Below the pieces are notes generated by a model, which did no database searches, was not told where the DNA came from, and saw only the letters and a program-made list of their open reading frames with translations. A DNA stretch of 64,000 nucleotides from Macrostomum lignano (lineage: Eukaryota): NCBI GenBank assembly GCA_002269645.1, contig NIVC01000955.1, forward strand, positions 1-64,000. Direction: 5' to 3'. Every line of letters starts with the position of its first letter. The first letter of the stretch is position 1. Positions 1-17,000 of the stretch are shown here, one piece after another. A program made the translations under genes and the position numbers.

Positions 1-2049
1 AAACAAAACCATTACGATGCTTTGTTCATATCAACACGCATCAATGAGTTTAAAAAAGTTTTGCTCATCAATGACAATTAGAGAGGATTTGCGAAAGACC
101 TCAATGGTTCACGACATTACCGAACACGACTATTTAGAGCGCATGGACGAATGGTATGAATATTTACAATTTGATCTTATTTCTTTATGCGCCTGTATTC
201 ATAAGTATAATGAAATAGCATATGAAATTGGAGGAATGACAATGTTCGATACTCTTACCTGTTCAAGTTTAACATTAAAATGTTGGTTTAAAGATTTTGT
301 TAGAGTTGAAGACAAAATGAAACAATATCTAAAGACAGAAGAAAAAACTAATTACATTAAAAAAGTTGAAGAAATAATATCTCCGTTGAAAATAGAGGAT
401 TATTTTGACTTAAGCAAACTTGAAAAAGCAAAATACCAAACACTATTAAGAAATTTTCAGTTCACTCTCATACCAATCCTTATATACGAAGGTTTATGCG
501 GGACGCAGTCAAAGGAGGCAGGGTATTTGCACTAATAAATAAATATGAAAGCGACTGTTTTCAAACAATTGTAGACGTTGTAAAAAGCCCATTTAAAAAC
601 ACCAACAAGCGACCCATGCGAGGTTATATCATTTATCTCAAAAGCGATATGGAAGAAAAAAAGAAAATCGCAATTAAACTAAAAAAGCAATTGGGTACCG
701 CATCAGATTGTTTAATGAATTTTGATGGAGTTTCGTTGTACCCATCTGCCATGTCTGATAAGGATAGTGAATATCCAAGAGCAGAAACAGCAAGAGTTTT
801 TGATATAAGCGAGGAAAAAGATTTCTTGGCACAATTTAATTCACAAACCTTTCGACCAAAAACAGCGGTTTTAAAGATTATGTATGAGAATCCTAACACC
901 GTTTTTCTTCAACATCTCCCATCGAAAGATAAAGAGAAATTTTATAATCCGGAAACAAAAGCAAACGAAACAAAAACATTAAATAGGTTTAGAAACGGAA
1001 AAGTAATTGACACCTTATGTTCCGTAGATATACAAGAAATTGTAAGAATGGGTGGAAAAATATTAAAGATATATAGTGGAATTGTATATGAAAAAAATTA
1101 CGATTTCTCTCCGTTTCAGAATTATATTACAAATCTTTTTGAAATGAGAAAAGTATTTAAAAAAGAAAATAACGAGGCAGGTTCTGAATTGGTAAAAACA
1201 CTATTAAATTCATTATATGGCAAAACAGTTCAAAGAGACATTACTTTCACAACACATCTCTGGAATTTGCAAACATTAAAAACCGAATACGATGACACAA
1301 TCAAATCATATGAGAAAATATGTGACGATTTATATTATGTTGAAAAAAATAAAGACACGCAAGAATATGTAGATGAGGAAGAGGAAAGTCCTATAACAAG
1401 CCTTTGTCCAGCACAATTAGGAATATTTATCTTAGCTCATTCAAGAAGGATCATGAATAATTTTATTACCTCTATAGAGGGCTCAAAGACTCCAGAAATT
1501 TATTACGGCGATACAGATTCGTTATATATACATAAAAAACATTGGGACACATTAAATAAAAACGGGCATGTTGGAAATAACTTAAGTCAAGGAAAAAATG
1601 ATTATGGAGAGGGTGGAATTATATTCGGTTATTTTATCGCTCCTAAAATTAAATATTGTCTTTTATTGAAAGACGATTTTATTATGGAAGAGAAAAAAAC
1701 ATTTAAAGGATGTGCAAACGATAAGATTAATTTTGCATCGTTTAAAACTTTATATGATGGACAGTCAATAAAAGTAAATAATAATGCTCCGTGGAAACGA
1801 TCATTTGAAGGTGGTATAACAATTCCTCAAAGCGGATCAACAATATCAAAAACATATACCTCTACGATAAACACATTTAAAAGAGAAAAACCGGATAAAA
1901 ACGGAGTTATGAAACCATTCTTTAAAAACTATTTTGATGACAAACCACAGCATGAACATTCAATTGAATATTATAACAGTTTACTATTTGACGTTGACTA
2001 TAATTGTTTTGAGTTCGATATTGATGAATTAGCACTTGAAAAAAACTAA
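1..2049 (+). CDS. polB: Protein-primed family B DNA polymerase (5'-truncated by window edge; one frameshift near 465)
   Basis: Motifs KGGRV, DGVSLYPSAM, KTLLNSLYGK, YGDTDS and KIKY. ORFs 17..535 and 496..2049 join by a 1-nt shift (…HTNPYIRRFMRDAVKGGRV). Confidence 0.95.
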
Positions 2050-2086
2050 AGCATGTAATTGTTTAAGCATAATATCCATTTCGATT

Positions 2087-2379
2087 TCATATAATATTGA
2101 AGGCAATTTCCTCGCAGTCGTCAGGGTAACTTAAACAATCCTTTATTTTTTTCCTAAGTTTTTTTATTTTTCTAACCAATCTATCTATTTCAATTTCAAT
2201 TACTGTTTCAGCATAAGCAATTGCAGATTTAATAAAACGTTTTCTTTTATCCATTTCATATCGGATGGGAAACATATCGTCCCCATACTCATGATATTTC
2301 TGAGATATAATTATATTTATTTTTTATTAATATCATTAAGTTCACGCTCTTTAGTGATAAGGATTTTTATCGTATCCAT
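2087..2379 (-). CDS. Small viral hypothetical protein, probably frameshifted in an A-run near 2320
   Basis: AAAAATG start near 2379 (MDTIKILITKERELNDINKK). It continues in another frame into ORF 2087..2275. Confidence 0.4.
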
Positions 2380-2394
2380 TTTCTTATAAAAAAT

Positions 2395-2727
2395 TTAGTC
2401 TTCGTCGTCATCCTCCCAAACAGCCGCCAATTTTACAGTCCTATCACTCTTTTTATTATTTGTTTGTTTTAGTTTAAATTGCAATCCACCCTCGTTGCAG
2501 TATTTCATAACAAACGCTTTAGGTTTATTAATAACTAAAACAGGAAAATTTTTAACATCATCTCCGCTTAGACATAAAATTTTTTGCCCATCTAATTGTA
2601 AAAATATTGATTGAAGCCCAATAAATTTAACCTGTCTCAAACATATAATATTATATTCTTTATTCTCCAACATATTGGGTGTGAGATAATTAATCACATT
2701 AGAATCGGTTTTGAACCAGCTCTCCAT
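2395..2727 (-). CDS. Viral hypothetical protein with acidic C-terminal tail (possible ssDNA-binding protein)
   Basis: TAAAAATG start at 2727, about 110 aa, beta-strand-like pattern, ends WEDDDED. Function is inference only. Confidence 0.5.
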   Translation of the reverse strand: MESWFKTDSNVINYLTPNMLENKEYNIICLRQVKFIGLQSIFLQLDGQKILCLSGDDVKNFPVLVINKPKAFVMKYCNEGGLQFKLKQTNNKKSDRTVKLAAVWEDDDED

Positions 2728-2766
2728 TTTTAATCTAAAAAAATAACAAAAAAATGAAAGACATTT

Positions 2767-3240
2767 ATGTGTAATAAATGTAATGTGACTATGCACAGAG
2801 GGCAAACAGCAAACGGAGATATATATCATATGTGTTATTCATGTTCTAAAATATATCAATTTGAAAAAACAAAAAAGATTGAAAACTCATATTACTATTT
2901 TAAAAATACAATTTTAAGAAATCTTACAAGAGACATTTCTGATCCAATTTTAATTCCCGGAAATAATGTTTATTTATATAATAACTTTTTCCATTTAAAT
3001 AAAGGAAAGGGATTAAGTTCGAAAGACTCCGAAAGGATTTTAATTTTAGTTGGATATTATTTCAATTTTCTTATTCGAGAGAATACAAAGTTTATAAGGA
3101 TAGGTAACATACCTAACGAAATGTTATTGAAAAAGTCATTGGAATTTTTATGTATTGATAAAAAATTTAAACCTAGAATCAGAAGAGAGTTACCACTTTG
3201 GGAAGAATATATAACATATGCATTAAATAAATTGTACTAA
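2767..3240 (+). CDS. Viral hypothetical protein with N-terminal CxxC...CxxC zinc ribbon
   Basis: CNKC...CYSC. Real start may be the AAAAAAATG at 2755 with a 1-nt shift. Confidence 0.55.
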   Translation: MCNKCNVTMHRGQTANGDIYHMCYSCSKIYQFEKTKKIENSYYYFKNTILRNLTRDISDPILIPGNNVYLYNNFFHLNKGKGLSSKDSERILILVGYYFNFLIRENTKFIRIGNIPNEMLLKKSLEFLCIDKKFKPRIRRELPLWEEYITYALNKLY

Positions 3241-3257
3241 ACATGACAAGTCATGAT

Positions 3258-3285
3258 CGTGCCATAGGCACGCGTGCTTTGCACG
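3258..3285. mobile_element. 28-bp double-hairpin element, copy 1 (intergenic, just past the stop of ORF 3287)
   Basis: AT-cgtgcc(ata)ggcacg-cgtgc(ttt)gcacg-AT. Confidence 0.8.
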
Positions 3286-3286
3286 A

Positions 3287-3942
3287 TTAAACAACATTAA
3301 GTTCTACAGCACTTCCTGACCGCGGGCTTTGTGCCCCAGTAGCAATAGTTTCAGGTTCGTAAATACCTAATGTTTCTATAGGTGGAGCTTTGGGTTTGTC
3401 CAAACGTAATTCTTTTAATTCCATATCGGTAAAAGTTTCAACATCTAAAATTCTATTTCTATCTTTTAAATATTTTTCATATAATTCAACCGCGGTTGAT
3501 AATTCATGAATCGTTATCTCTCCGTCATCCAATATTTTTTGCACATATAAATATAATTGATTTTTATATTGTTTTGCAACATCTCTTAAAGATTTATATT
3601 TTTCCTTTCTTTTTTTAAGATATAATTTAATTGCTAAAAGTATTGATAAGTTCTGATCAATTCAAAACCTGATATTGAGCCAATTGAAATACCTAAAAAT
3701 AATTGAGATAAATTAAGAGTTGGAATAGATTGTAAAATACCTAAAACGATTACACATAACATTGATAAGCTTCCAAATCCAATATTGAAAAAGTCCATAT
3801 TTCTTATATGGTTTGAAACTCTTCTTACTTTTTTAGCATATAAATCATAATCATAATTTATTCGATCAACATTACTCAACATCTGACCTTTACGTTGGTT
3901 GAACCGGTCGCGTTCCCATTTATCTGCTTCAGATACCGACAT
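3287..3942 (-). CDS. Two-TM viral membrane protein of the Maverick family sometimes called GasderminX-like (frameshift near 3640)
   Basis: Hydrophobic hairpin (FFNIGFGSLSMLCVIVLGIL...LFLGISIGSISGF), then basic KKRKEKYK and a KILDDGEITxxELxxxxExYEKY motif recalled from Maverick accessory proteins. ORFs 3634..3942 and 3287..3544 join by a frameshift. Confidence 0.55.
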
Positions 3943-4253
3943 TCTCGTCTATTTTTAATAGCACCAAAATGAATTCCCCGCGCTCTTGGGGATTTGCCCG
4001 AGCTCAATAGGTATTGTATTGGAGTTATTCTTTCTTTTTTCTCCCATTTAAATCCTATTTTCCAAAACTCTTGAAGTATAATATGATTTTTTAATAACTT
4101 AATTAATTCTTGAAGCTTCTTATTATCCTGAACATTTACAGTACTAAATAAAAATTTGGTATGAGATTTGAATGTTTTTATATTTGATTCTTGTTTAGGA
4201 ATAGGAATAATAACATTATTTTGCCGCATCGATGGAGTTCTACTAAAAGCCAT
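3876..4253 (-). CDS. Viral hypothetical basic protein
   Basis: TATAAAATG start at 4253 (MAFSRTPSMRQ...). The C-terminus may be affected by a frameshift. Confidence 0.45.
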   Translation of the reverse strand: MAFSRTPSMRQNNVIIPIPKQESNIKTFKSHTKFLFSTVNVQDNKKLQELIKLLKNHIILQEFWKIGFKWEKKERITPIQYLLSSGKSPRARGIHFGAIKNRRECRYLKQINGNATGSTNVKVRC

Positions 4254-4284
4254 TTTATATAGAAATATTTTATATATAAATATT

Positions 4285-6327
4285 TTATATTTGAGTAGGA
4301 GGTTTTTCCAAATAAGCAGTAGAGGGAAAAACATAACCAAACGACGTACTACCACATACAACTGCACCACGAATAAAATGTGCAGCATCCGCTCCACCAG
4401 TTCGAGCACCAAAACCCATAAGGGTTCCAGATTTATCTAAAGTTCCCCAAGTTCCACTATCATATGTGAAAACGTTCTGTCCAATGAGGGTAAAAGAATC
4501 ACCAGCAACATTGTATGACTGTAATCGGTACCAAACCCTTTGATTTAAAATATTAACTTCAAAAAGATGCCAATTGCCGTTATCAATATTAGCATAGGCT
4601 ACAGTTTGATCTGCGTCAGTATTAACATCCGCGCGGCTTGATCCGTCTGATTTTTTATTACTCCAAACAACTCCAAACCTATCATGCCACTCACTTGCAA
4701 AAACTATCAATCCGGCGTCGGTTGATAATCCAGTTCCAAATTCCGATGTTGGACGTTGGTGACAGTATGCATAAAACCAAACCGCATCTGCACCATCTCC
4801 TGTAGCATTAGCAACTCGGAAAAAGAAAGACGCAGATATATTTTGAAAATGTGTGAAATTGAATTGTAAAGCACCACTTACTCCAGAAGTTTCACGAGTA
4901 ATTCTAGCGCCGTTTTGATAATCGATATAAGAAGCATCGCTAATTAAAGAACCGACTGGATATATATCTCCGGCGGTTGTTGGATTTTGATATCCAGACC
5001 AATTGCAAATTACTGGTTCGAACAAGGCCGCATCAATAGCAGGTATTCCATCCAATTTATTTTTATCGCTTCCAGACATTCTACCATTTGATGTTGGAGT
5101 AGCTAGCTGATCTACGTACGCTCGCGGAACTGCAGAAAGTATTTGAGTTGGCCAATTAAGATCTTGAATTTCAACACGGTGTTCAAATAATTGTATTTGA
5201 CGAACCTCGATAGGTTGTGTACCGGTACCACCAGTTGGGAAGAATACGCTATAATATTTCCAAAAATTAGTCGTTAAATTAGATAGAGCAAATGATGTTG
5301 CTTGAACTGGTGATCCCGACGTAGTTAATGTCGTCCATGAATCGGTAGCAACATTTTTTGCGCGAACCGACCACCCCGAGGGTATCTCAATTGTTTCACT
5401 GCCTGTAATTCTTAATTCAAATATTCTTCTATTATAACCTAAAAATTCAAATTGAATTTCCATATTGGTTGTGGTTCCGGTATTTGGTGACCATTGTGTC
5501 GCAAGGCTTCCATCTCCAACTCGAAAAGCTGTGTTGCCATTTTCAGATGCTGTAAGAACAACATCAGGATTTGAAGTATTTGATGTAAGCGGCGTGGTAA
5601 AAATATCGGCGTCGGTTGCATTAGCTCGCTCATTTACTTGGCCTAGAGTTATCGAGTCTGCGTTCTCTGTTCCAAATAATAAATTTGTTAATTTAAAATT
5701 ATTCATATTAATATTTCCACTACGAGTGGCAACTTGATTATCGACATAGTTCTTATCAACCACTGAATCACTAGTTGTAATTGAAACATTTATAATTCGG
5801 TTGTTGCTCATATCTAGGTTTCCGGTTGCGGTGGTTTGAACATAACGTGAATCAGAATCAGTTCGAGAATAAGAATCAGTTACATCTCTTTTTAAATTTA
5901 ATCCATTATCAACTTCGGTTTTGGTATAAGAATCGGCTACGTTCCGTTTCAAATTTAATGAATTATCAACTTCGGTTTTGGTATAAGAATCGGCTGTATT
6001 GCGTTTTAAATTTAATGAATTATCAACTTCGGTTTTGGTATAGAATCGGCTGTATTGCGTTTTAAATTTAATGAATTATCAACTTCGGTTTTGGTATAGG
6101 AATCGGCTACGTTCCGTTTCAGATTTAGTGAATCATCTATTTGAGTTTTGGTATAGGAATCTGCAACATTTCTTTTTAAATTTATTTATTATCAATTTCA
6201 CTTTTTTTATAACCTTCATCTCATTAATATATCGATTATCTCCAAATGTAACACTTATTCCACCAGATGTGCCACCACCACCACTACTTGTTGTTCCGTT
6301 CCATGAGGGTGTTCCAGAAAATAACAT
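4285..6327 (-). CDS. Fibre/spike-like structural protein: 19-aa repeat stalk, discoidin-like domain, C-terminal ConA/L-type lectin-like domain (frameshifts in the 5' part)
   Basis: Start at 6327 (MLFSGTPSWNG). About 6 repeats of NVADSYTKTEVDNSLNLKR. Fibre-type motifs LDMSNNRIINV...DKNYVD and NMNNFKLTNL. F5/8-like segment (FRVGDGSLATQW...WTTL...IEVRQIQLF). Lectin-like segment (GADAVWFY...NGNWHLFEVNI...GFGARTGG). Confidence 0.7.
5895..6190 (-). repeat. 57-bp coding tandem repeat (19-aa units) in the fibre gene
   Basis: Unit on + strand: aatgaattatcaacttcggttttggtataagaatcggctacgttccgtttcaaattt. Confidence 0.9.
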
Positions 6328-6337
6328 TTTTTACTGT

Positions 6338-6775
6338 CTATTTTATAGAGTCTAAAATATTCTTAAATACTTCGGGGGTTTCCTTCGAGTTATTAATTTT
6401 ATATAAAAAATACAACGCCGCTTGCCCGCAATAACTTTTGTCAAATGTTTGAAATTGTTCGTGATGATCTCCACATAAACGATTTTTAGTATGATTAAAT
6501 TTGTCTTTTATTTCCTGTAACGGAGGAAGCGCGTATGAATCAAAAAAATAAACAAGTTTTGGTTTTGAATAAACTGCTGACCAATGAACACCGTTTTCTT
6601 TTGTTGTTTCAATATTAACAATGAAAGATCCATATTGTGGTAAGTCTTTGATCTCATCTCGCATAACACATCTGAATGGTTTTATTTTTAACTGCCTCGC
6701 CCAATTTGTTAATTCGATATTGCTTGTTGTGTCCGTTCCATATCTTTGTTTAAAATCATCCCACGTCATGGTCAT
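6338..6775 (-). CDS. Adenain-like (Ulp1-fold) maturation cysteine protease
   Basis: Catalytic motifs GVHWSA, FFDSY and Q...YCG. Intact 145-aa ORF. Confidence 0.92.
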   Translation of the reverse strand: MTMTWDDFKQRYGTDTTSNIELTNWARQLKIKPFRCVMRDEIKDLPQYGSFIVNIETTKENGVHWSAVYSKPKLVYFFDSYALPPLQEIKDKFNHTKNRLCGDHHEQFQTFDKSYCGQAALYFLYKINNSKETPEVFKNILDSIK

Positions 6776-6776
6776 T

Positions 6777-6986
6777 TTATGTTCCTGAAAAACTCTTGGT
6801 TTTAGTTAGTTTCGTAGGTGTGGGTTTTAACAATTCCTTTCTTATTTTATCAGCTTGTAACTGCCTTAATTTTGCTAGTTCTAGTTCGTAATTATCTTCA
6901 GCTTTTTTAACTTTTTCTGATTGTTTTTTTATTAAATTATTATTATTATCGTGCTTTGCACGCGAACATGTTGTTCGATTACCCAT
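6777..6986 (-). CDS. Small viral protein (MG start) carrying an in-frame double-hairpin insertion
   Basis: AAAAATG start; MGN[RTTCSRAKHD]NNNN. Confidence 0.55.
   Translation of the reverse strand: MGNRTTCSRAKHDNNNNLIKKQSEKVKKAEDNYELELAKLRQLQADKIRKELLKPTPTKLTKTKSFSGT
6950..6977. mobile_element. 28-bp double-hairpin element, copy 2 (in frame in ORF 6777..6986)
   Basis: AT-cgtgc(ttt)gcacg-cgaaca(tgt)tgttcg-AT. Confidence 0.85.
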
Positions 6987-6996
6987 TTTTACAGTA

Positions 6997-7779
6997 CTAA
7001 ACCTGTTTTATACGTAAAATTATTGTTATTGACTGCCCACCAAAACTTATTAATCTATCGCTTTCATCTACAATCCTAATATAAATTGATTGAACATTAT
7101 ATTGATTTAATGGGTAATATATTGGGGTTTGAGGTGATACAATCATTTTCTCTCCAATTGGAACAGCAAGAAATGGGATTGAATAAATAATTCCACGTTG
7201 AACCAAAACTCCATTATTATGTTATATAACCACCGTTTGATATGTCGGTTGTTATATTAATTGTATTACTCCACCCTCAATATTTCCCACTGTATCTCCG
7301 GTGCTTGATGTGGTAACTATTCGGGAATTAAATCCAAGTATGGTTCTGAGTGAATTTGCAATTGTGAAATCAACCTGATATCCGGATCCTAGTGATAGTG
7401 TGAATCTGCCAGACGGTAAATCAACACCTATAACAATTGCTCCTGTTACCCAATCACCATTAGTTGTTAATTCTCCTTCTATATAAGCATTCAAATCAGT
7501 ATAGCTATACGCTCCTGGGTTAATGCTAAATGTTGTCCAATTGGCTCCGGAATCTTTAGAATATCTAAATTGATTATTTGTTGCATTAATTAATTGAGGC
7601 ATGTTGAAAACCGAAAATAGTATTAAACCTATTTGATAACTTAGGCTTTGATCAAGTTGTAATGGATCGCGCAATTGAATCCGTTGCTCGCTGGTTGTCA
7701 TTATAAACTGTAATGTTGTACTAAATTTTGAATTAGTTCGATCTACCAATTGTTTTATAGTATTTAAATTTGTAGTCAT
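6997..7779 (-). CDS. Minor capsid protein (penton), frameshifted near 7210-7255
   Basis: PIQL..LSYQIGL, INPGAYSYTDLN, LRTILGF, and C-terminal SIYIRIVDESDRLISFGGQSITIILRIK, typical of the Polinton penton. Confidence 0.85.
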
Positions 7780-7799
7780 TTTTATAGTGGGAAATTAAT

Positions 7800-7827
7800 C
7801 GGACGAAGTCCGCGTTCCGAAGGAACG
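7800..7827. mobile_element. 28-bp double-hairpin element, copy 3
   Basis: AT-cggac(gaa)gtccg-cgttcc(gaa)ggaacg-AT. Confidence 0.85.
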
Positions 7828-7829
7828 AT

Positions 7830-7857
7830 CGTACCGAAGGTACGCGTGCTATGCACG
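7830..7857. mobile_element. 28-bp double-hairpin element, copy 4 (tandem with copy 3; supplies the ATPase stop codon)
   Basis: AT-cgtacc(gaa)ggtacg-cgtgc(tat)gcacg-AT. The TAG at 7849-7851 on the - strand lies within it. Confidence 0.85.
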
Positions 7858-8648
7858 ATCCTCTTCTTCCTCATTATCTTCTTTTATCAAATTTGTTAAA
7901 ATTCTATGTTTCCTTTCTAACCTCGGATTGATATAAATATGTTTGTATTGGCTATCATCCCAAATTTTTTTACACATACTTTTAAATGGTTTTGCATCCA
8001 ATCCGGGATTAAATCTAGCGTGTATATTTTGTAAATCATAATTATCTAAATCAAACATTACACAACAACTTGCATTCTTTTTTATAATCGATTCTAATTC
8101 TCTAAAGGACTGTGTTAGATAAAAAGCTCCAATTCCATCTCCTCTACCACTAACAAAAATTTCCTTTTGCAATTCTTGATCACCGTCATTAATACAATCA
8201 TCAAAAATAATTAGTGTTTTATCATGTTTTGGAATTTGATCATAGGCTAATCGGGTTGATACTCTAACAGTTGGGCTCGATCGGACGAAGTCCGCGACCC
8301 TTCGGGGCGATCGGTGATGTTTTCTGGCTGTTGTGCCATTGTTTTACATAAATCCTCAATGTCATCGAGTGTAAATCGCGGTTCGTCATCATCCTCATAT
8401 TGCTCATATGCTCTTAACATTCTAAACAAGACATCTTTTTTTAATTTGTTTTTTAATCCATGTTTAAGAAATTCATAATATTTTATTCTAGGTTTGTTAG
8501 TATAAATTATTAAATTATTATAGTCTAGCATTCCATCGGTTGTTAACAGGTCATAAACAAAGTGTGTTTTTCCTTTACCTGATCCTCCGATTACTAAACA
8601 AAGAAAAGGATCATTTGGAAATATTTTATTGTGTTTTGCCTTTACCAT
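7849..8648 (-). CDS. Genome-packaging ATPase (A32/FtsK-HerA type), frameshift near 8275
   Basis: Walker A GGSGKGKT. Walker B LIIFDD in the shifted frame (PTVRVSTRLAYDQIPKHDKTLIIFDDC). Arginine motif SGRG, then YLTQS. Confidence 0.92.
8282..8309. mobile_element. 28-bp double-hairpin element, copy 5 (in frame in the ATPase)
   Basis: AT-cggac(gaa)gtccg-cgaccc(ttc)ggggcg-AT; encodes RPEGSRTSSD. Confidence 0.85.
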
Positions 8649-8696
8649 TTTTAAAGAAATAATTTAAATAGGCGCGACGGTCGGAGACCTGCGACA

Positions 8697-10166
8697 CTAA
8701 AGTGGTGCGTCCCGAACAATCGTGCCATCAGCTTTAGCAATTGACATATATTCCTCTAGAAACAATACGTGTGCGTCTATTGCCTGATTACCGGTTTTAT
8801 TAATCTCTAACATATAATTAAGTCCAATATTGGCTACGTTTTCTTTCTGTGCCGTTAGATCATAAACAACCACTGGATGAATGTTTAGAAACTCTGTGGG
8901 TGTGTACTGAGGGACGGCATACGCTTCATTTTTAGCATAATCTTGATAATATTTTATAAAATCATTAACATTATTATTTGCAATATTTAGATTAGGGATC
9001 TTTAACCGGATAATATTGATCATCAACCTGCAGGCGGATATTCTGAACATTAAACTCGTTAATAGCTGCAGCCGCATTGTCTGTTGCGGTGGCTGCTTGT
9101 TCTGCTATGGCACCGGATTGAAGCCAATATAAATCCCCATTTGCTCTTTTACTCCTTCTATTTGTTATCTTAAACCAAACAAAAATATATCTCACCCGAC
9201 GTTTTGATGTCAGTATTTGCCACTGGAATGAATCCTGGTTATTATTAATGGTTCGCATAAAATGTCGACGATTCAAATAAAATATTTCCTGATCATGCGT
9301 TAACTGATTATCGATGTGTTTTAAAAGTGGGGCTGTTACCTCAATAGTTGGTACGACTAATTGAATTGAATCTATACGAACTGCTATATCGGTTGAAATT
9401 GAGGTTCCATAAAGTATCCTAGGCTGATATCCACCAGATATTTGCAACTGTATCCCAAATTTTAATCCTTTCCATACCCGATTTGGTGAGAAAACCCAAA
9501 TAGTGGAAAGATTGAAAAGTCCTGCTCATATGCTGTTGCTGTGGTTAAAACCGCGACTGGGAATTTATTCTGACGATCTATAAAACCAGTATTAATATCT
9601 TTTGTATTAGTCATAGTGGTTACAACTGGAACTATGTTTGTATTAAGGTAAACAATTAGCGCTGCAGTATCTGCACCGGCTGCGTTTTGTACATTAGGGA
9701 AAACTACTGCTTGCCCGTTACCTTTATCCGGCATCCACCCAACATTATCACCAACTTGTTTTGATAAATAAGTATAATTTAAATGTTTCAAAACTCCATT
9801 AATCTCTGCGGGATTTGATGCTGTCTCAACCTCGGCTCCATTAACTGATAGTTGGGCTTGGGAAAAACATTTATAAAACCAATCATTTTCTATTATTATT
9901 CCGGATCGATCTGCGATATCTCCGGCTGCAAGAGCAGTTCCATCATTTCTAGTATATAACCATCTAACACGGAAAAATGCATTTTTCATATCCAATATAG
10001 TGTTGGTTGCGCCGATGTCAAAAGTTACCGTTCCAGTAGTAAAGTTATTTGAATTATCACTTGTTGGTAGGGTATAATTTAAATCTCTTGCTCTGACCTC
10101 ATTAATATACTGTCGGTGCTTTTTGAAATGAAATTTATCACTCCACATAGTTTTTGTTTCAGCCAT
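8697..10166 (-). CDS. Double jelly-roll major capsid protein, two frameshifts (near 9480 and 8995)
   Basis: TVTFDI, FSQAQLSVNGAEVE, FPLFGFS-(shift)-RVWKGLKFGIQL, RVRYIFVWFK, IRLQVDDQYYP-(shift)-NLN, PVVVYDLTAQKE. This is a Polinton MCP pattern. Confidence 0.9.
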
Positions 10167-10200
10167 TTTTTTAAGTTAAAAAAGTTTTTTATGTTAAAAA

Positions 10201-10872
10201 ATGAGTCAATTTATGGACGTTGATGGAGAGTTAGCGATTTATAAAGAGAAGCAAAGATATTCTGATTTTGTTAGAAATTTACAAAAAAGAAAGTTAGGAA
10301 TACAATTAGCTGGCGAAAGATTTGCTGCTCCTTTTGTTAATCCTATTACTGGGAAAATTAGTGAACTAGAAAAAACAGATAAAGACCTTCTGGAAAAAAT
10401 TGCTAAAAATACGGAGCCAAAAGAGGATGAAATTTTGGATGAGCCGCCTGCTTATGAGACTGATCAAGCAATATTTAGAGTTGCAGAAATTAGACGTGAA
10501 GAGATTAGGGGTGGAGTTGAACAATTTCCAAGAGATGCGCCACGTAGTATTGCTGCGACAGATTTAGGTGGTGGTAATTATCGAATTGGTAACGTTGTTA
10601 AAGATCGAAATGAACTATATAGAGAATTGGGCGGAGCATTTAATATTATTACGAACCCTAGGGTAAAATTTAACCCCGATTTATATACTAGGGATGAATT
10701 AATAAGTGCTAGAATTTTTTATGATGAGTTAGGAGGAGCTGTTAAAAATACCAGCTTGTATAAATGGATTGTTAATTCTATAAATAACAAACCAGCTGTT
10801 GGTGATGGATTTAAAACACCGCGAAAACTTGTTTTAGCTGCTGCGAAAGCTGCTGGACATACTGGAGTTTAA
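10201..10872 (+). CDS. Viral hypothetical protein (possible core protein)
   Basis: Intact 223-aa ORF with TAAAAAATG start, head-to-head with the MCP gene. Confidence 0.65.
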   Translation: MSQFMDVDGELAIYKEKQRYSDFVRNLQKRKLGIQLAGERFAAPFVNPITGKISELEKTDKDLLEKIAKNTEPKEDEILDEPPAYETDQAIFRVAEIRREEIRGGVEQFPRDAPRSIAATDLGGGNYRIGNVVKDRNELYRELGGAFNIITNPRVKFNPDLYTRDELISARIFYDELGGAVKNTSLYKWIVNSINNKPAVGDGFKTPRKLVLAAAKAAGHTGV

Positions 10873-10900
10873 TTAATTGTTAAATTTATTTTTTTATAAA

Positions 10901-11470
10901 ATGGATGAAACAAAAATTTGTACTACGTGTAAAATTGAGAAACCGATGACTAAAGAATTTTTTTGTTGGAGAAATGACACAAAAAAATTTAAAAATCTTT
11001 GTCGATCTTGTGAGAAAGTTAAATGTACTATGTGGAGAATAAACAATAAAGATAAATGTAATAAATATGCAAAAAATAAATATCGCACTGATGAAAATTT
11101 CAAAAATATTAGTCTAATTAGAGCTAAAATAACTTGGGCATTGAGAACTTTTCATGACAAACATTATATCTCCTATCTTGGTTGCACAAAAGAATTCTTT
11201 TTTGATTGGTTAAATTTCACAAGAAATTATTATGTTCCAAAAAATTATACTGGAAAGTTAGATATTGATCATTTCATTCCCGCTTCTTCATTTAGTTACA
11301 AAGACGATGATCAGATTAAAAAGTCTGAAAATTGGAGAAATAAAAGATACTTAACTAGCGTAGATAATAACTATAAAAAAGTTAAACAACCAACAATTGA
11401 AGAATTTGCGAAACAATTGGTGCTATCATGTATTTTTAAGGCTATTAAAAATGAACCAAATAGTGTTTGA
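10901..11470 (+). CDS. Free-standing HNH (endonuclease VII-like) nuclease with N-terminal zinc finger
   Basis: TATAAAATG start at 10901. CTTC...CRSC zinc finger, YLGC, and HNH core DIDHFIP...ENWRNKRYL...DN. Intact 189 aa. Confidence 0.8.
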   Translation: MDETKICTTCKIEKPMTKEFFCWRNDTKKFKNLCRSCEKVKCTMWRINNKDKCNKYAKNKYRTDENFKNISLIRAKITWALRTFHDKHYISYLGCTKEFFFDWLNFTRNYYVPKNYTGKLDIDHFIPASSFSYKDDDQIKKSENWRNKRYLTSVDNNYKKVKQPTIEEFAKQLVLSCIFKAIKNEPNSV

Positions 11471-11576
11471 AGGAGGATTTTTAGACTTACAAAAAGGATT
11501 AACAAGCTTACCACCAATCTTTACTACTGGGAGGTATACGGGTGAGCTACACCTACCATCAATGAACTTCACAGGT
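11451..11576 (+). CDS. PLA2-integrase fusion, exon 1
   Basis: AAAAATG at 11451; MNQIVFEGGFLDLQKGLTSLPPIFTTGRYTGELHLPSMNFTG. Joins in frame to exon 2 to give NFTG|PGTRL. Confidence 0.85.
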
Positions 11577-11879
11577 TATCCCGTGGCCTGAGTGGTAGAA
11601 GCAAAGCTACTGCTAGTCACTATTAGTGGCGATGTCTCCAAATTGCGTGAACCCCGTCATACAGCTTCAAGTACCACTTCAATTGAGAAATCTTTTGAAG
11701 GAACAGAGGTAACTCCTCTTCCCAAAGGTAAAAAGCTTGAAGACATGGTGGCAATGCGCAGCCAAGCTCCTAAGTATTTTAAATATAAGGAGAAGGTTCA
11801 GAGAGCAGACGGAGATGGGCGGTAATTATCGCCGCTTAAGGTGTGCTCCAGCCTCTTTCGAAAGATTGAGGGTAAACAG
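11577..11879 (+). ncRNA. Group I self-splicing intron (IC-like, with P2.1 and P5abc; no internal ORF), 303 nt
   Basis: P1: exon CAGGU pairs with GCCUG (11586-11590), giving U.G at the 5' splice site. P: AAAUUGCGUGAA (11640). Q: AAUGCGCAGCC. R: GUUCAGAGAGCA (11796-11807). S: UUAAGGUGUGCUCC. P7: G-A(bulge)-GAGCA/UGCUCC. P3: GUCUCC/GGAGAU. P8: GGCGGU/AUCGCC. L9 is GAAA. Terminal G at 11879. P10 can pair with exon 2 CCGGGGA. Confidence 0.93.
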
Positions 11880-13028
11880 CCGGGGACTAGACTGGATTTA
11901 AGATTAAATCCTGACAATACTCCAAAATCTGATTCAATTCCAATAAATGGGATTGATTGGTTAGCATACTATCACGACTTAGCATATAGAGATGCTGACA
12001 AGAACCCGCCCGAGGAAGCATTAAGATTAAAACATGATGCCGATCAAAAAATGATTCAAGGATTAGATAACTTGCAGGGATTATCGGTAGGTCAAAAATT
12101 AACTAGGTGGATGGTTAAAAAGATCTTGCAGTCTAAAGTTAAATTTGGTTTGGGAATTAATTATAATCAACATGGAAATAATTGTGTTGAGTGTTTGTTG
12201 TTAAGTGGCGGCGGGTTAAGTTCTGATGAGGCAAAGATTCTTCATAAAGAATATCGAAAACCTAAATTTTATAGAAAAATCATGAACTTCAAAAAGAATG
12301 AAATTTGGTATGCTGATTTAATGTCGATGCCGAACGAAAGAGGATATAAATATATCTTAACCATATTAGATGGTTTTACTCGATACGCGTGGGCTGTTCC
12401 TTTAAAATCCAAAAAGGGAGAGGAGGTTGCTGCTGCTTTTAGAAGTCTTGGAGAAAAAAGTGAAAGGTTGTGTGTTGACGAAGGAAAAGAATTTTACAAT
12501 CCTCACATGTATAAATTGTATCATTTTGAAAAAGGACAAGAAAGGAAAAAGGACGCGAATGGGGAGTATATTAATAAAATTTATTCTATTTATGGAGAGA
12601 GTAAAAACGCATTAATAGAAAGATTTAATAGAACTTTAGGTAAGAAATTATGGTTTCAGTTTAGTCTTAATGGTAACCAAAAATGGGTAAAAATATTACC
12701 AGACGTAGTGAAAGATTATAACAATTCATATCATTCGGCGATAAAGATGACTCCTCAACAAGCTTATAACAATCCTGAAAATGTTAGGGTTACTTTTGGA
12801 AAATTTGAAAAAAATAAAAAGAAATCTTTTAAGGTTGGTGATTCTGTTTATATCTATAAATGGAAAGATAAGTTTGAAAAGGGAAGAAAAGGATATTGGA
12901 AGATAAGTGAGAAATTTACCATCAGTAAAGTTTTAAATACAAATCCTACAACCTATATAATTGCTGATAAGGATGGTGAAGAAATATTGGGTTCTTTTTA
13001 TGAGAATCAGATATTATCTGCAAACTAA
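11880..13028 (+). CDS. PLA2-integrase fusion, exon 2: parvovirus-type phospholipase A2 domain plus retroviral-type DDE integrase
   Basis: PGTRL...INGIDWLAYYHDLAY...HDAD (PLA2 His-Asp). Integrase motifs WYADL, ILDGFTRY, CVDEGKEF and IERFNRTL, with C-terminal FKVGDSV...GSFYENQI. Spliced product is 424 aa. Confidence 0.93.
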   Translation, partial: PGTRLDLRLNPDNTPKSDSIPINGIDWLAYYHDLAYRDADKNPPEEALRLKHDADQKMIQGLDNLQGLSVGQKLTRWMVKKILQSKVKFGLGINYNQHGNNCVECLLLSGGGLSSDEAKILHKEYRKPKFYRKIMNFKKNEIWYADLMSMPNERGYKYILTILDGFTRYAWAVPLKSKKGEEVAAAFRSLGEKSERLCVDEGKEFYNPHMYKLYHFEKGQERKKDANGEYINKIYSIYGESKNALIERFNRTLGKKLWFQFSLNGNQKWVKILPDVVKDYNNSYHSAIKMTPQQAYNNPENVRVTFGKFEKNKKKSFKVGDSVYIYKWKDKFEKGRKGYWKISEKFTISKVLNTNPTTYIIADKDGEEILGSFYENQILSAN

Positions 13029-13038
13029 GTTCGATCAG

Positions 13039-13293
13039 TTACTTAAGACAACATGGTAGTAAATTTTTTATAACAAACAAAAACAATATTATTACAATAA
13101 TTGTTACTAATATTATTATTGACATTTGTTCAACTGTTATCAAACTTAAATTTTCATTAAGTTCATTAATCGGCACATTTCCGATGTAGGAATAATCGTG
13201 CAAAGCACGCGAACCATGGGTTCGATTTACCTTCATTTTTTTATATATATTTTTCACAATAAATGTCGTTTCTGTTATAGAATAATAGTTCAT
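13039..13293 (-). CDS. Small viral membrane protein with an in-frame double-hairpin insertion
   Basis: C-terminal TM segment IIILVTIIVIILFLFVI; VN[RTHGSRALHD]YSY. Confidence 0.55.
   Translation of the reverse strand: MNYYSITETTFIVKNIYKKMKVNRTHGSRALHDYSYIGNVPINELNENLSLITVEQMSIIILVTIIVIILFLFVIKNLLPCCLK
13197..13224. mobile_element. 28-bp double-hairpin element, copy 6 (in frame in ORF 13039..13293)
   Basis: AT-cgtgc(aaa)gcacg-cgaacc(atg)ggttcg-AT. Confidence 0.85.
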
Positions 13294-13309
13294 TTTTTAA
13301 ATATTTTTT

Positions 13310-13624
13310 TCACATAAAAATTTCACTTTCATTCTCTGAATCACTGGTTTCATATGAACTATTTGTTGATTCGGAATCTGTTGATCTAACCTCCCAATCA
13401 TCCGAATTTAAATAATCTCCAAGTTGAAATATTAACTCACCCTCTTGTTCTAAATCATACATCTCATCTAGCTCTAATGGATAAAGTTTTAGGTCGTGCT
13501 TGTCGTCATATTTTAAATAAACTTCATCAATTATTCCATTCAAAATATGTTGTTTTATTATCTCTGCATTTTTAGCAACAGTCTCAAAAGTATCACTAAC
13601 AGAAAAGGTGTAAACTCGGTTCAT
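13310..13624 (-). CDS. Acidic viral hypothetical protein
   Basis: TATAAAAAATG start; 104 aa with D/E/S-rich tail. Confidence 0.55.
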   Translation of the reverse strand: MNRVYTFSVSDTFETVAKNAEIIKQHILNGIIDEVYLKYDDKHDLKLYPLELDEMYDLEQEGELIFQLGDYLNSDDWEVRSTDSESTNSSYETSDSENESEIFM

Positions 13625-13714
13625 TTTTTATAACAGAAAAAGACCCTTCGCGCCTGCGGCGCGTGCGACGGGTTCTAGAAAGTTTGTGTGTGTTGGAGAG
13701 AGTTGGAAGCGTTG

Positions 13715-13952
13715 ACGATACAAAATACCCAGCAAACCAAAGCGAGCGACGAGGGCGTGTTCTCACCATTCAAAAAGAATTAATCGTTGTAAGTGTGAAA
13801 TGGCCTGTTTGACCGAAATGAAGCGAGGATGAGCGAAGCGAGTTGAGCGAAGTGAAGACGAGCGAAAATGAAGGGAAACAGGCCATTTCACACTGATAAA
13901 GGGTTAAATTGTTTGCAATGGTGAGAATGGTTTGCTGGGTATTTTGTATCGT
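13715..13952. repeat. Subterminal interrupted inverted repeat (long hairpin) in the Polinton right terminus
   Basis: Perfect arm pairs 13715-13739/13928-13952 (25 bp), 13760-13770/13917-13927 (11 bp) and 13792-13810/13876-13894 (19 bp). Confidence 0.9.
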
Positions 13953-14016
13953 ATATACTACTGACACTCAAATAAGACATCTACAGATAGTTAACCACCC
14001 AGTTTAAGAGACAAAC

Positions 14017-17000
14017 CTTCTCTTGTGCAATCAATCTAGCCAGCTCTTCTTCTCTTTCAGCCTTCCGCGTCCTTAACTCTGCCAGGAGGCTGCGCAGCTC
14101 CCTGTACCGCTCCAGCAGCCGGCGCCGCTCGCCAGAACTCAACTTCCTCAAAGGCCGCAAAGTGTTGCCGCTGCTGCCGCCGCTGCCGATGGTCAGCTGG
14201 CACAGGTGTCTGGCGTGCTGCTGCTGGCGCAGATGCCTGGATGTAGCCGCTTTGATTGCCGCCGACTGTTGCAACAGATCCGACGATGTCGAAGAGCCGA
14301 CGCTCTGCTGCGACAGCGAGCAACAGTCGTCGCTGGGGTCGGTCAGGATACTTGGCAACTGGGCTGGGAGCCGGTTCACACTCTGCGAGCTGTTATCTGA
14401 AAGATTCGCAAAAGTCGCGCGGAGTAACTAAAAAGCTAATATCAATATTTTTACTACTAGTAGAGCATCGCGTACACCCTCGTTGTTTTTATTAGCTAGA
14501 ATTTAAATGATTTTTGCTACATTTCTACTATCAGTAGTGTATCAAGTATATCAAATAAAAGCTCATTGTTATTAATTTTATTCTCAACACTAATCACACA
14601 ACAGTTAGGTCGCTAAATTAGTAGTTTAAAAAGGTCCCGGGTTCGATTCTGTAAAAATACACTCACAAGTCTATTTTCGAGTCTTATATTTAAGTACGCT
14701 AATTATGCGGTCAAGAAGCAGAATCAGTACTTTGGAGGTCCCGAGTTCGAATCTTAACAAATTTATTTACCCATTAATATATATAGAGCTCTAATTTAAT
14801 AGAGCTCATGAATAGGATACATTAGCAAGAATGGAGGTCCCGGGTTCGATTCGCAATAGCGAATCATACTCTCAATCGTTGATTTATTGTAGGCTGGAAT
14901 GCGGCTGACTGGATTAACTGGAAAGCAGGAAACTTGAAGCGCAGTAGAAAACATTCTGACTGCACTGCACCCAACCTAAATCACACTGTATCAGACACTA
15001 TATGCTTAGTGCATTAATACTAAAGTAATATGCTCGGGCACGCCAGAGGAAAATGAATCTAAGCAATTAACTTATGCGTAGAACTTGCAGTGCCCCGCCA
15101 ACACAAGCGCTTCCATAAATCTCCACTGTATAAGGGGCTTGTCCATAGTGCAAGTTTTCTAATATAATTTCAGGTTAATAACAGGGAAATTCTCAGGTTA
15201 ATAACAGGGAAATTCTCAGGCTAATAATAGGGAAATTCTCAGGTTAATAACAGGGAAATTCTCGGGTTAATAACAGGGAAATTCTCAGGTTAATAACAGG
15301 GAAATTCTCAGGTTAATAAGAGGGAAATTCTCAGGCTAATAACAGGGAAATTCTCAGGTCAATAACAGTGTGACTCTCAGGTTAACAGGCGGCAAACAGG
15401 TTACAGAAGCACTTATTCTTACACAGAGCCGGATGCTGCGATGTTTTCAGATCGCGCAGACTTCTACCGCCCGCGCTGCTACTACCTGAATGAAAGGTGG
15501 CGGTTGCTAAGGCGTTGTCAGGCGGTGTAACCACAACAGGCAGCTCAATGTTGGAGGGACTCGCAGTGGCTGACGCCAGAGACACCTGGGAGAATAGCAA
15601 ATGTGTAACTGACTGAAGTTATGGCCATAGAATAAAGTACTATAAGCAACATTATGGTCTAACTAATACGGTTTAGGCTTAAATATTTGTGGTAGAAAAT
15701 GAACAATATTGAGCGACTGATCAGATTTTACACATTCATTATGTGGCTACTCTATTCTTATAGACTAGGAATACAATCGATAGAACAGGAATAGAATGAA
15801 TAGCACAAGAATAGAATGGATAGCTAATCTAGCCGACAAAGAAGTCAGAGAACTTTATCCAGACTCACAAGGTTGTACGATCCGCGTCGTTTTTTCACGA
15901 TTCTGATGTGCATTTTAGCAATATTTTAGCTAGAGGAAATATAAGCAGAAAAATATGCTACCATGGAATAATATACACCTACGGGTTGATATGCCAGAAT
16001 TGCTTCCCGTATGGAACCAGGTAAAAAAGGAGTTAGAATTTGCGCAGTAAACTTATATATACTTACATACTGTAGAATTTTCTGGCTCCTTCTCTTTCAG
16101 TTTTCATGCCTCCATAGTTTCAGTCAATCAACACCTTTTGTCGCCCTTGCTCTAAGCTTTCTACCCTCTTTCGATAAGCACGTTGGGCTAAACTTAGTGA
16201 GCTTGCTTAATTAGCAGTCTGTAAGCATCTCTTTTTAATGCCTATTGGCGGCGTTTTCTACCTTTTAGTAGATGACACTAAACAGTGTACAACGCCGACA
16301 CACGCAACTAAGCAAGAAAATTTCTAATTTGTCCGAAATCGTTTTGTACATAGGACAGTTGTGCTTTAAGGCGGTACAAGGTCGATTGTGTATCAAGGCG
16401 GTACAAGATCGATTGTGTCTTAAGGCGGTAAAAGGTAGATTGTGTCTCAAAGCGGTAAAAGGTCAATTGTGTCTCAAAGCGGTAAAAGGTCAATTGTGTC
16501 TCAAGGCGGTAAAAGGTCAATTGTGTCTCAAGGCGGTAAAAGGTCAATTGTGTCTCAAAGCGGTAAAAGGTCAATTGTGTCTCAAGGCGGTAAAAGGTCA
16601 ATTGTGTCTCAAGGCGGTAAAAGGTCAATTGTGTCTCAAGGCGGTAAAAGGTCAATTGTGTCTCAAGGCGGTAAAAGGTCGATTGTTTCTCAAGGCGGTG
16701 CAAGTTCGATTGTTTCTCAAGGTGGTACAAGGTCGATTGTGTCTCAAGGTGGTACAAGGTCGATTGTGTCTCAAGGTGGTACAAGGTCGATTGTGTCCCA
16801 AGGTGGTAAAAGCTCGATTGTGTTTCAAGGCGGTACAAGGTTGATTGTGTCTCAAAGCGGTAAAAGGTCAATTGTGTCTCAAGGCGGTAAAAGGTCAATT
16901 GTGTCTTAAGGCGGTAAAAGGTCAACTGTGTCTCAAGGCGGTAAAAGGTCAATTGTGTCTCAAGGCGGTAAAAGGTCGATTGTTTCTCAAGGCGGTGCAA

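Follow-up and report, generated by a model that had tools for sequence, protein, structure and literature searches.

A group I intron in the PLA2-integrase gene of an animal Polinton and its probable role as immunity to a short-site nuclease

The PLA2-integrase gene of a Polinton integrated in an animal genome is interrupted, between a Gly and a Pro codon, by a 303-nt insert (positions 11577-11879, plus strand, of the window, as we call the whole 64,000-nt stretch analysed). On sequence grounds, this insert is a real group I intron with IC1-like anatomy and no ORF: it matches the Rfam model RF00028, its helices show covariation and it is absent from two other copies of the gene, L063 and L064. 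We propose that the intron would be the immunity half of a two-part selfish system. It would protect its element from a nuclease with a short recognition site and spread by homing or by exclusion of intron-less rivals, a reading to which we assign a probability of about 0.7.

Exon 1 (11451-11576, plus strand) encodes 42 residues, the last of them Gly, and is collinear with the intron-less L063 (PF08398, 37 bits). Exon 2 (11880 to ~13028, plus strand) encodes 382 residues beginning with Pro, which comprise the remainder of the parvovirus-type PLA2 domain (PF08398, E = 0.0014) and an rve integrase (PF00665, E = 1.6e-7). In comparisons with seven copies whose exon 2 is open, its dN/dS was 0.05-0.19; the value for the window against L003 (0.66) was left out, as the frame of L003 is broken. 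An earlier reading of the letters alone, hereafter the sequence-only reading, had claimed that removal of 303 nt restores Gly|Pro in frame. Both its coordinates and its frame were right, with exon 1 ending ...SMNFTG and exon 2 resuming as PGTRL at 11880. That reading had also put forward a covariance-model search as a check. RF00028 matched 11567-11870 over the whole model (1-253) with 57.0 bits, above the gathering score of 50 (E = 8e-14). The match was found in local scans; a fast-filter Rfam scan of the whole window did not pick up the intron. At sister loci, RF00028 matched at E <= 0.01 in 11 of 18, each above the cut-off.

The insert carries two stops in the exon reading frame. These rule out an ordinary in-frame protein segment at 11577-11879, the alternative that the sequence-only reading had itself named, and they mean that full-length PLA2-integrase can be made from the window allele only after splicing, as had been stated there. 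A spliceosomal intron was also rejected, since the termini are TA..AG instead of GT..AG. An in-frame 3' splice site 9 nt earlier was ruled out because the G residues concerned pair in P9, and P9.0 indicates 11879.

All of the helices P1 to P9 described in the sequence-only reading are present, on the plus strand; its P10 was seen by eye only. P1 pairs 11572-11576 with 11586-11590 and puts a U11576.G11586 pair at the 5' splice site, a U.G that is kept in 10 of the 10 rows covering it. It is followed by P2 (11593-11598/11607-11612), with four compensatory pairs, and P2.1 (11616-11621/11625-11630); the P2/P2.1 region is the place where copies of a second family, family B, carry a nuclease ORF between inverted repeats. 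The core from P3 to P8 spans 11634-11849. Within it, P3 (11634-11639/11811-11816), P4 (11644-11649/11755-11760), P5 (11654-11658/11747-11751), P5a (11663-11667/11733-11737), P5b (11678-11682/11695-11699), P5c (11705-11709/11715-11719), P6 (11761-11763/11795-11797), P6a (11767-11771/11788-11792) and P8 (11818-11822/11832-11836) are supported by the RF00028 match and by pairing in the alignment. P7 (11801-11807/11844-11849) has a bulged A and changes on both sides in four of its six pairs, and 15 of 16 rows retain its G-C guanosine-binding pair. The 3' part (11850-11879) consists of P9.0 (11850-11851 with 11877-11878), a GAAA-capped P9 (11852-11871) and the terminal nucleotide. Of the two P9.0 pairs, A-U is conserved in 13 and G-C in 14 of the 16 rows, so that the 3' splice site falls directly before the Pro codon. 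P2.1 and the P5abc extension, which we take to be features of subgroup IC1, are both present.

Covariation was assessed in an alignment of 16 copies, taken from this genome and one metagenome contig, with each pairing partner slid by 1-3 columns as a control. Paired cells numbered 981 of 1017 (96.5%) compared with 41-53% in the slid controls, a fraction that tilts toward the window copy because the structure was drawn on it. Both-sided changes occurred in 21 of 68 pairs, mostly in P2, P7 and P8, compared with 1-6 in the controls, and support the P3-P7 pseudoknot and the P4-P6 domain; as the rows are related and the structure comes from the window copy, these counts are support rather than a measure of significance. 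Plain minimum free energy folding of the intron was mildly unusual only (z = -2.3).

The host Polinton occupies approximately positions 1-13970 and belongs to family A. It has ORFs for a protein-primed PolB (PF03175), an A32-type ATPase (weak PF04665) and protease-like, capsid-like and fibre-like proteins, together with the rve integrase (PF00665). Its capsid ORFs, taken as those of a double jelly-roll capsid, are 27-36% like a family B ORF that scores with PF21738. The contig starts inside PolB, so that a single end of the element falls within the window, and the PolB, ATPase and capsid ORFs are split in the window copy. The right end is placed roughly; in run X16 the depth drops to flank level near 14000. 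The remainder of the window is host DNA with FERM, p38-like kinase and transporter exons. Between these exons, at 15166-62966, lie many minisatellite arrays (periods 23, 27, 35, 43, 68 and others).

In the 764-Mb assembly, the intron with its flanks was matched in all 40 scored of 186 candidates; in the search with exon 2, 150 of 497 candidates were scored. Wnt genes occur on contigs C952, C506, C67 and C393 and innexin genes on C10, C23 and C13, and each of these contigs also has a match to the PLA2-integrase gene or the intron. Thus, sister copies share contigs with animal genes, which makes the host an animal; the innexin count suggests an invertebrate. A contaminating protist was ruled out by this linkage and by read-through from the element into its flank. 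Together with the RF00028 match, the Wnt and innexin linkage upholds the central claim of the sequence-only reading, that a protein-coding Polinton gene in an animal nuclear genome contains a group I intron. None of the sequencing runs is recorded as RNA; X1 and X3 were judged RNA-like by their behaviour. In both, a host exon at 14016-14396 (minus strand) was covered with loose ends on both sides and joined to other exons, and the host intron was uncovered. The Polinton seems to have its place within an intron of a host gene that is expressed.

We surveyed 67 loci for the state of the insertion site; intron queries had yielded 58 of them, which biases the set. Every intron-bearing locus among the 67 has the intron at the same Gly|Pro site. 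Family A copies, like the window, have introns of 297-308 nt. In family B, the PLA2-integrase is 60% identical, and the intron is 836-895 nt long with an ORF in the P2/P2.1 region. Family B replicates with a Prim-Pol and D5 helicase (L286:7792-9966), so that within one animal genome a pPolB Polinton and a Polinton-like virus share the same intron and nuclease. A third intron type occupies the same site (L059:409-736, L060, L061, L062). Its P3/P4/P7 core is different, presumably IE-like, and scores 41.6-42.9 bits with RF00028, below the cut-off; its P2, P2.1 and P5abc are 78-83% identical to those of the window intron. Its sequence looks as if two ribozymes had swapped peripheral domains. The usual 3' splice site would break the reading frame in this type. 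Family B introns have short hairpin-like insertions in the loops of P5, P5c and P6a that differ between copies (L051, L055, L035). One further copy, L289, is truncated.

Intron-less alleles, for which the sequence-only reading had recommended a search, do exist. Among nine regions chosen from protein matches, two (L063 and L064, both family B) read directly from Gly to Pro with a gap of 0 at the insertion site. The intron-less allele has an open 463-aa frame, and over 7.4 kb the DNA of the L063 element shows 96-99% identity to that of an intron-plus element. Among the loci examined, no intron-less family-A allele was seen. Outside this genome, the metagenome contig L198 has PLA2 exon 2 and, at the same site, an 80.6-bit intron that ends in G and contains the same ORF (57%). 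Several further homologous proteins from public assemblies continue into intron-core sequence. No relatives of PLA2 exon 2 were found in IMG/VR. The closest intron cores among the IMG/VR loci fetched, which lie within Rpb1 or in the vicinity of VLTF3, share ~70% identity over 170-190 nt; the intron may have come from giant-virus genes of this sort, for example Rpb1.

The omega-G proposed in the sequence-only reading is present in the window as G11879, but many relatives lack it: the last base is A in 22 of 33 family-A copies (L008-L013, L016-L025, L027-L030, L065 and L066). In the A-ending copies P9.0 is intact, exon 2 is in frame and P7 is unchanged; the terminal A goes together with a synonymous variant in the opening codons of exon 2, and dN/dS was 0.09-0.15 in six pairs. 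With 22 of 33 copies ending in A, many family-A introns may splice poorly, and the coral intron ND5-717 is spliced exactly with a terminal A (PMC6545197, in part). Contigs assembled from four runs over 10900-15100 list no joint across 11577-11879, a result that cannot show absence. In the unspliced contigs across the 3' junction, A accounted for 30.7/30.7 and 11/11 of the depth in the two RNA-like runs and for 43.2/179.6 in a DNA-like run. The A-only signal in the RNA-like runs is a weak hint that G-ending introns are removed and A-ending ones retained; a subfamily that ends in A and is more active would give the same pattern.

The ORF within the family B intron encodes a candidate nuclease. 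It matches PF09553 (Eco47II restriction endonuclease) with 29.6 and 28.1 bits, over the cut-off of 25.9. Its AlphaFold model (pLDDT 91.9) was most similar, out of 48,161 chains, to EcoO109I (Z = 9.2, rmsd 3.6, 152 aligned residues, 15% identity), with the second-best row at Z = 6.2; a search of a viral structure library gave no match at E <= 0.001. The PD-(D/E)XK residues D65, E76 and K78 are invariant in 16 homologues, and dN/dS was 0.09-0.32 in those 8 of 10 pairs that yielded a value. A genome search with the nuclease gave 110 matches from 121 candidates. One contig carries many fragments of the family B nuclease gene spread over 12 kb (G000:C954:72260-84368).

A second group of these nucleases, 55-69% identical, is free-standing and lies directly upstream of exon 1 in family A (L026). 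When 39 matches of the free-standing type were compared with the exon 2 list, 37 had exon 2 downstream with the spacing of an intron-plus allele, none had that of an intron-less allele and 2 had no partner. The genome search gave no nuclease match on the intron-less contigs C25 and C273. The slot upstream of exon 1 appears exchangeable: it holds an Eco47II-like ORF in L026 and other family-A copies, and in the window (10877-11470, plus strand) an ORF like HNH/endonuclease VII (weak PHROG matches, E = 0.001 and 0.003). The window intron is without a nuclease ORF, which lies inside the intron in family B and L198, and the window element is without an Eco47II-like gene. The HNH-like ORF was found in 29 of the 30 nearest copies, a set chosen by likeness to the window. 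It is 51-97% identical between copies, far more variable than its neighbours. It also changes places with the Eco47II-like gene and may represent a second nuclease of the selfish kind. At 11454-11457, between this slot and exon 1, other copies have insertions of 33-66 nt, some of them palindromic.

Distant homologues of the nuclease also occur in giant-virus-type contigs without the intron; among 20 loci scanned around such homologues, an intron was present in L198 only. Neither Pfam nor a crude motif scan revealed a methyltransferase in the window element or in those parts of two family B elements that were fetched. A methyltransferase motif was found near 0 of 20 distant nuclease homologues with a crude regular expression that had no positive control. 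Eco47II homologues have been assigned the word GGNCC (PMC10305163, in part), and EcoO109I cleaves RG^GNCCY (PMC3089450, in part). The intron-less sites do not match RGGNCCY. From its family, its modelled fold and the avoidance described below, the nuclease is predicted to cut GGNCC.

Gly followed by Pro is always encoded by GGN CCN, so the intron-less site is itself a GGNCC, a word that the intron splits. The predicted nuclease word is therefore present at the insertion site in intron-less alleles only. We counted GGNCC after the PF09553 match had named the word, with expectations from trinucleotide counts. The window element (1-13690) has 0 compared with 11.5 expected (Poisson ~1e-5), the lowest of 256 XXNYY words, whereas the host part of the window has 103 compared with 110.5. 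The loss extends to protein: Gly-Pro occurs 0 times in 3881 residues of the window element against an expected 7.2, and Pro-Gly occurs 4 times. Synonymous shuffles of the element yielded no GGNCC in 5 of 1000 cases. In family B, an element with both intron and nuclease has 0 compared with 14.2 expected, and an intron-less element has 1 compared with 10.6, the one at the insertion site; the same holds for L064. These two elements are not independent samples, and a GGNCC on C25 some 580 nt upstream of exon 1 was omitted from the count because the end of the element could not be placed. That the intron-less element is purged too points to ancestry shared with nuclease carriers and is no proof of present cutting.

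The depletion is not a property of all Polintons in this genome. Four other pPolB lineages have 42 GGNCC compared with 51.3 expected (7/9.0, 7/11.9, 19/21.8 and 9/8.6), and counts are somewhat reduced in another lineage that bears PLA2 (2/7.3 and 4/7.5). In family A, CCNGG (5 vs. 16) and CTNAG (11 vs. 27) are low too, so part of the GGNCC signal may be general. The loss of a 5-mer throughout an element argues for a short recognition site. Viral and metagenome contigs with distant nuclease homologues show no consistent purge (371 vs. 471 over 44 loci). Strongly low loci among them are L253 (2/22.7), L259 (1/19.6), L197 (30/105.5) and L269 (0/6.4); L200, L225 and L247 are enriched. A further abundant lineage, seen among 150 scored of 426 PF08398 candidates, encodes PLA2 and integrase as separate genes (L287:2173-2628, L288:2438-3247). 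Its Gly-Pro GGNCC site is uninterrupted, and it has rather few other GGNCC.

Together, these observations suggest the following mechanism. Relatives of the window element encode an Eco47II-family PD-(D/E)XK nuclease, borne by the intron in family B and the metagenome contig or free-standing in many family-A copies, and this nuclease would cut the short word GGNCC. Elements of families A and B have lost that word, in the window's element along with every other Gly-Pro, and the parts examined yielded no methyltransferase. The Gly-Pro of PLA2 must spell GGNCC; the intron lies inside the word and leaves the DNA siteless, and splicing can restore Gly-Pro in the protein. When an intron-plus and an intron-less element meet in one cell, the nuclease would cut the intron-less one at its single site. 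The cut element would be lost, or it would be repaired from the intron-plus copy and so acquire the intron, as in homing, or in collaborative homing where the nuclease is free-standing. The purge would thus make of a 5-base cutter a single-site homing enzyme for the viral genome. The window copy would represent the nuclease-less, immune state, and its RNA would have to splice by the group I route to yield PLA2-integrase. The different replicases of families A (pPolB) and B (Prim-Pol/D5) fit lateral spread. GGNCC is not scarce in the host genome, and a nuclear enzyme that cuts at 5 bases would endanger it; the nuclease may be expressed only while the element replicates, or it may in truth be aimed at host or helper DNA.

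In its full form, the proposal describes a 'restriction-intron' system, for which we see somewhat better than even odds. An animal-infecting Polinton lineage would use a bacterial-type 5-base enzyme without a methylase, with its site erased genome-wide even at the cost of Gly-Pro. The last site would be hidden by a group I ribozyme that is spliced from an mRNA in animal cells, with some copies ending in A. The pair would move between unrelated virus lineages on the PLA2-integrase gene.

Other explanations bear on the role of the nuclease. It could be mainly a weapon against other DNA (host chromatin in the lytic phase, or a helper or competing large virus), with purge and intron serving as self-protection in place of a methyltransferase and homing as a side effect. 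Up to the splitting of the last GGNCC this explanation coincides with ours; what differs is the target. An enzyme that truly cut at 5 bases would require a purge of the whole element, neither a methyltransferase motif nor a Pfam match turned up in the parts examined, distant homologues occur in giant-virus-type contigs without the intron, and algal viruses that employ restriction enzymes are known. However, the gene lies within the intron or adjoins the interrupted gene, as homing endonucleases do (PMC3984707, in part), and many intact-looking copies have no nuclease; we regard the weapon as unlikely to be its main role. If the intron were instead an ordinary mobile one with a long-site homing endonuclease, all of the classic states would be expected, and all are found: intron-less, ORF-less intron, free-standing nuclease and intron-encoded nuclease. 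The loss of GGNCC would then stem from an outside nuclease or a bias in base composition, in keeping with the scarcity of other palindromes. Yet with a long-site enzyme the removal of every 5-mer and of all other Gly-Pro would go unexplained, the nuclease family predicts the very word that was purged, and control lineages in the same host are unpurged. We therefore consider a long-site enzyme improbable.

The two remaining alternatives concern the intron itself. It could be real and yet mostly a dead passenger, with integrase supplied in trans and a ribozyme that rarely splices. The A-ending of 22 of 33 copies, the A carried by the 3'-junction unspliced contigs of both RNA-like runs and the split PolB, ATPase and capsid ORFs of the window copy are all consistent with decay. 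By contrast, the helices are kept by compensatory changes across families, both exons are under purifying selection, also in A-ending copies, and exact splicing can proceed with a terminal A, as coral ND5-717 shows (PMC6545197, in part), so that a passenger is also a doubtful explanation. Finally, the sequence-only reading had suggested that splicing could gate integration or entry. A regulatory gate on PLA2-integrase production fits the fact that the fusion protein cannot be made from unspliced RNA, as well as the unspliced contigs over the junctions in the two RNA-like runs. Against it, intron-less alleles have an open 463-aa frame, three different intron types share the site, no sensor-like domain is present and the nuclease word accounts for the position. 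With no sign of regulation and a site better explained as a nuclease target, we regard the gate as unsupported and highly improbable. Overall, immunity to a short-site nuclease is the reading that we prefer.

If correct, these findings would extend group I introns from their textbook range, the rDNA of microbial eukaryotes and organelles, to mRNAs encoded in animal chromosomes, and would provide a natural ribozyme evolved to work in animal cells. They would also describe a route from restriction enzyme to homing endonuclease in which the enzyme becomes specific through a purge of the target genome instead of a longer site. All proposed stages in the birth of a mobile intron (intron-less, ORF-less intron, neighbouring nuclease, captured nuclease) occur together in one genome, so that collaborative homing becomes testable in a eukaryote. 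Site avoidance and homing would further imply encounters and competition between these Polintons in the form of replicating DNA, a point of relevance to whether Polintons in animals are active viruses.

Intron nucleases are known as weapons between phages. A close precedent for the arrangement proposed here is collaborative homing in phages, in which an ORF-less intron is mobilized by a neighbouring nuclease aimed at its insertion site, with later capture of the gene by the intron (PMC3984707, in part). All of these states are seen here too. The present case differs in that it involves a eukaryotic virus in an animal, a homologue of a Type II restriction enzyme, a predicted 5-base site and a purge of that site elsewhere in the element. 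With Type II restriction-modification systems of the Eco47II/Sau96I kind it shares sequence family (PF09553), the EcoO109I fold, the catalytic motif, the predicted GGNCC word and the need for self-protection; here, by contrast, no methyltransferase was found in the parts examined, and protection is apparently by site loss and the intron. The Eco47II family is listed as bacterial with a single viral member in PMC3424549 (in part), and PMC2441816 (in part) cites work on an algal-virus restriction enzyme. PD-(D/E)XK nucleases within group I introns have been described, namely I-Ssp6803I, with a 17-bp site, and Vsr-like enzymes, but these belong to other families, are prokaryotic and have long target sites (PMC3424549, in part).

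As for the intron, the nearest cores among the IMG/VR loci fetched (~70% identity) are those of giant viruses, in Rpb1 and other genes. These differ in host gene and have neighbouring ORFs that are HNH, LAGLIDADG or unassigned, and none is associated with a PLA2-integrase. Nuclear rDNA introns of subgroups IC1 and IE (PMC3679873, in part) and hexacoral mitochondrial introns (PMC6545197, in part) offer the same IC1-like anatomy and, in ND5-717, the terminal A, but the gene interrupted here is an mRNA gene, carried by a provirus within animal chromosomes. According to the 2013 review among these sources, nuclear group I introns occur only in rRNA genes of microbial eukaryotes (PMC3679873, in part). 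The sequence-only reading had left room for novelty among Polintons as such, and this part does not stand: RF00028 introns have been published in Polinton-like viruses integrated in the genomes of the protists Rhodomonas lacustris, Paulinella micropora and Desmodesmus armatus (PMC12220804, in part). These introns are similar in model, size (~300-380 nt) and setting, a protein-coding gene of a nuclear-integrated element; they differ in their protist hosts and in their location in a short gene upstream of the capsid gene, and the consulted section of that paper describes no nuclease, intron-less allele, target word or splicing. What stands is the animal case, for which we found no precedent. The consulted portions of the papers on adintoviruses (PMC8502044), coral polintoviruses (PMC11131425), nematode Polintons (10.1101/2023.08.22.554363) and moth PLVs (PMC11296320) contain no group I intron of this kind, and in the literature covered, which included subscription papers incompletely, neither a group I intron in an animal Polinton nor its pairing with an Eco47II-type intron nuclease was found. 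The mobile group I intron of a virus is thus a known kind of element, which is new here in its host kingdom and, if the nuclease cuts as predicted, in its mechanism.
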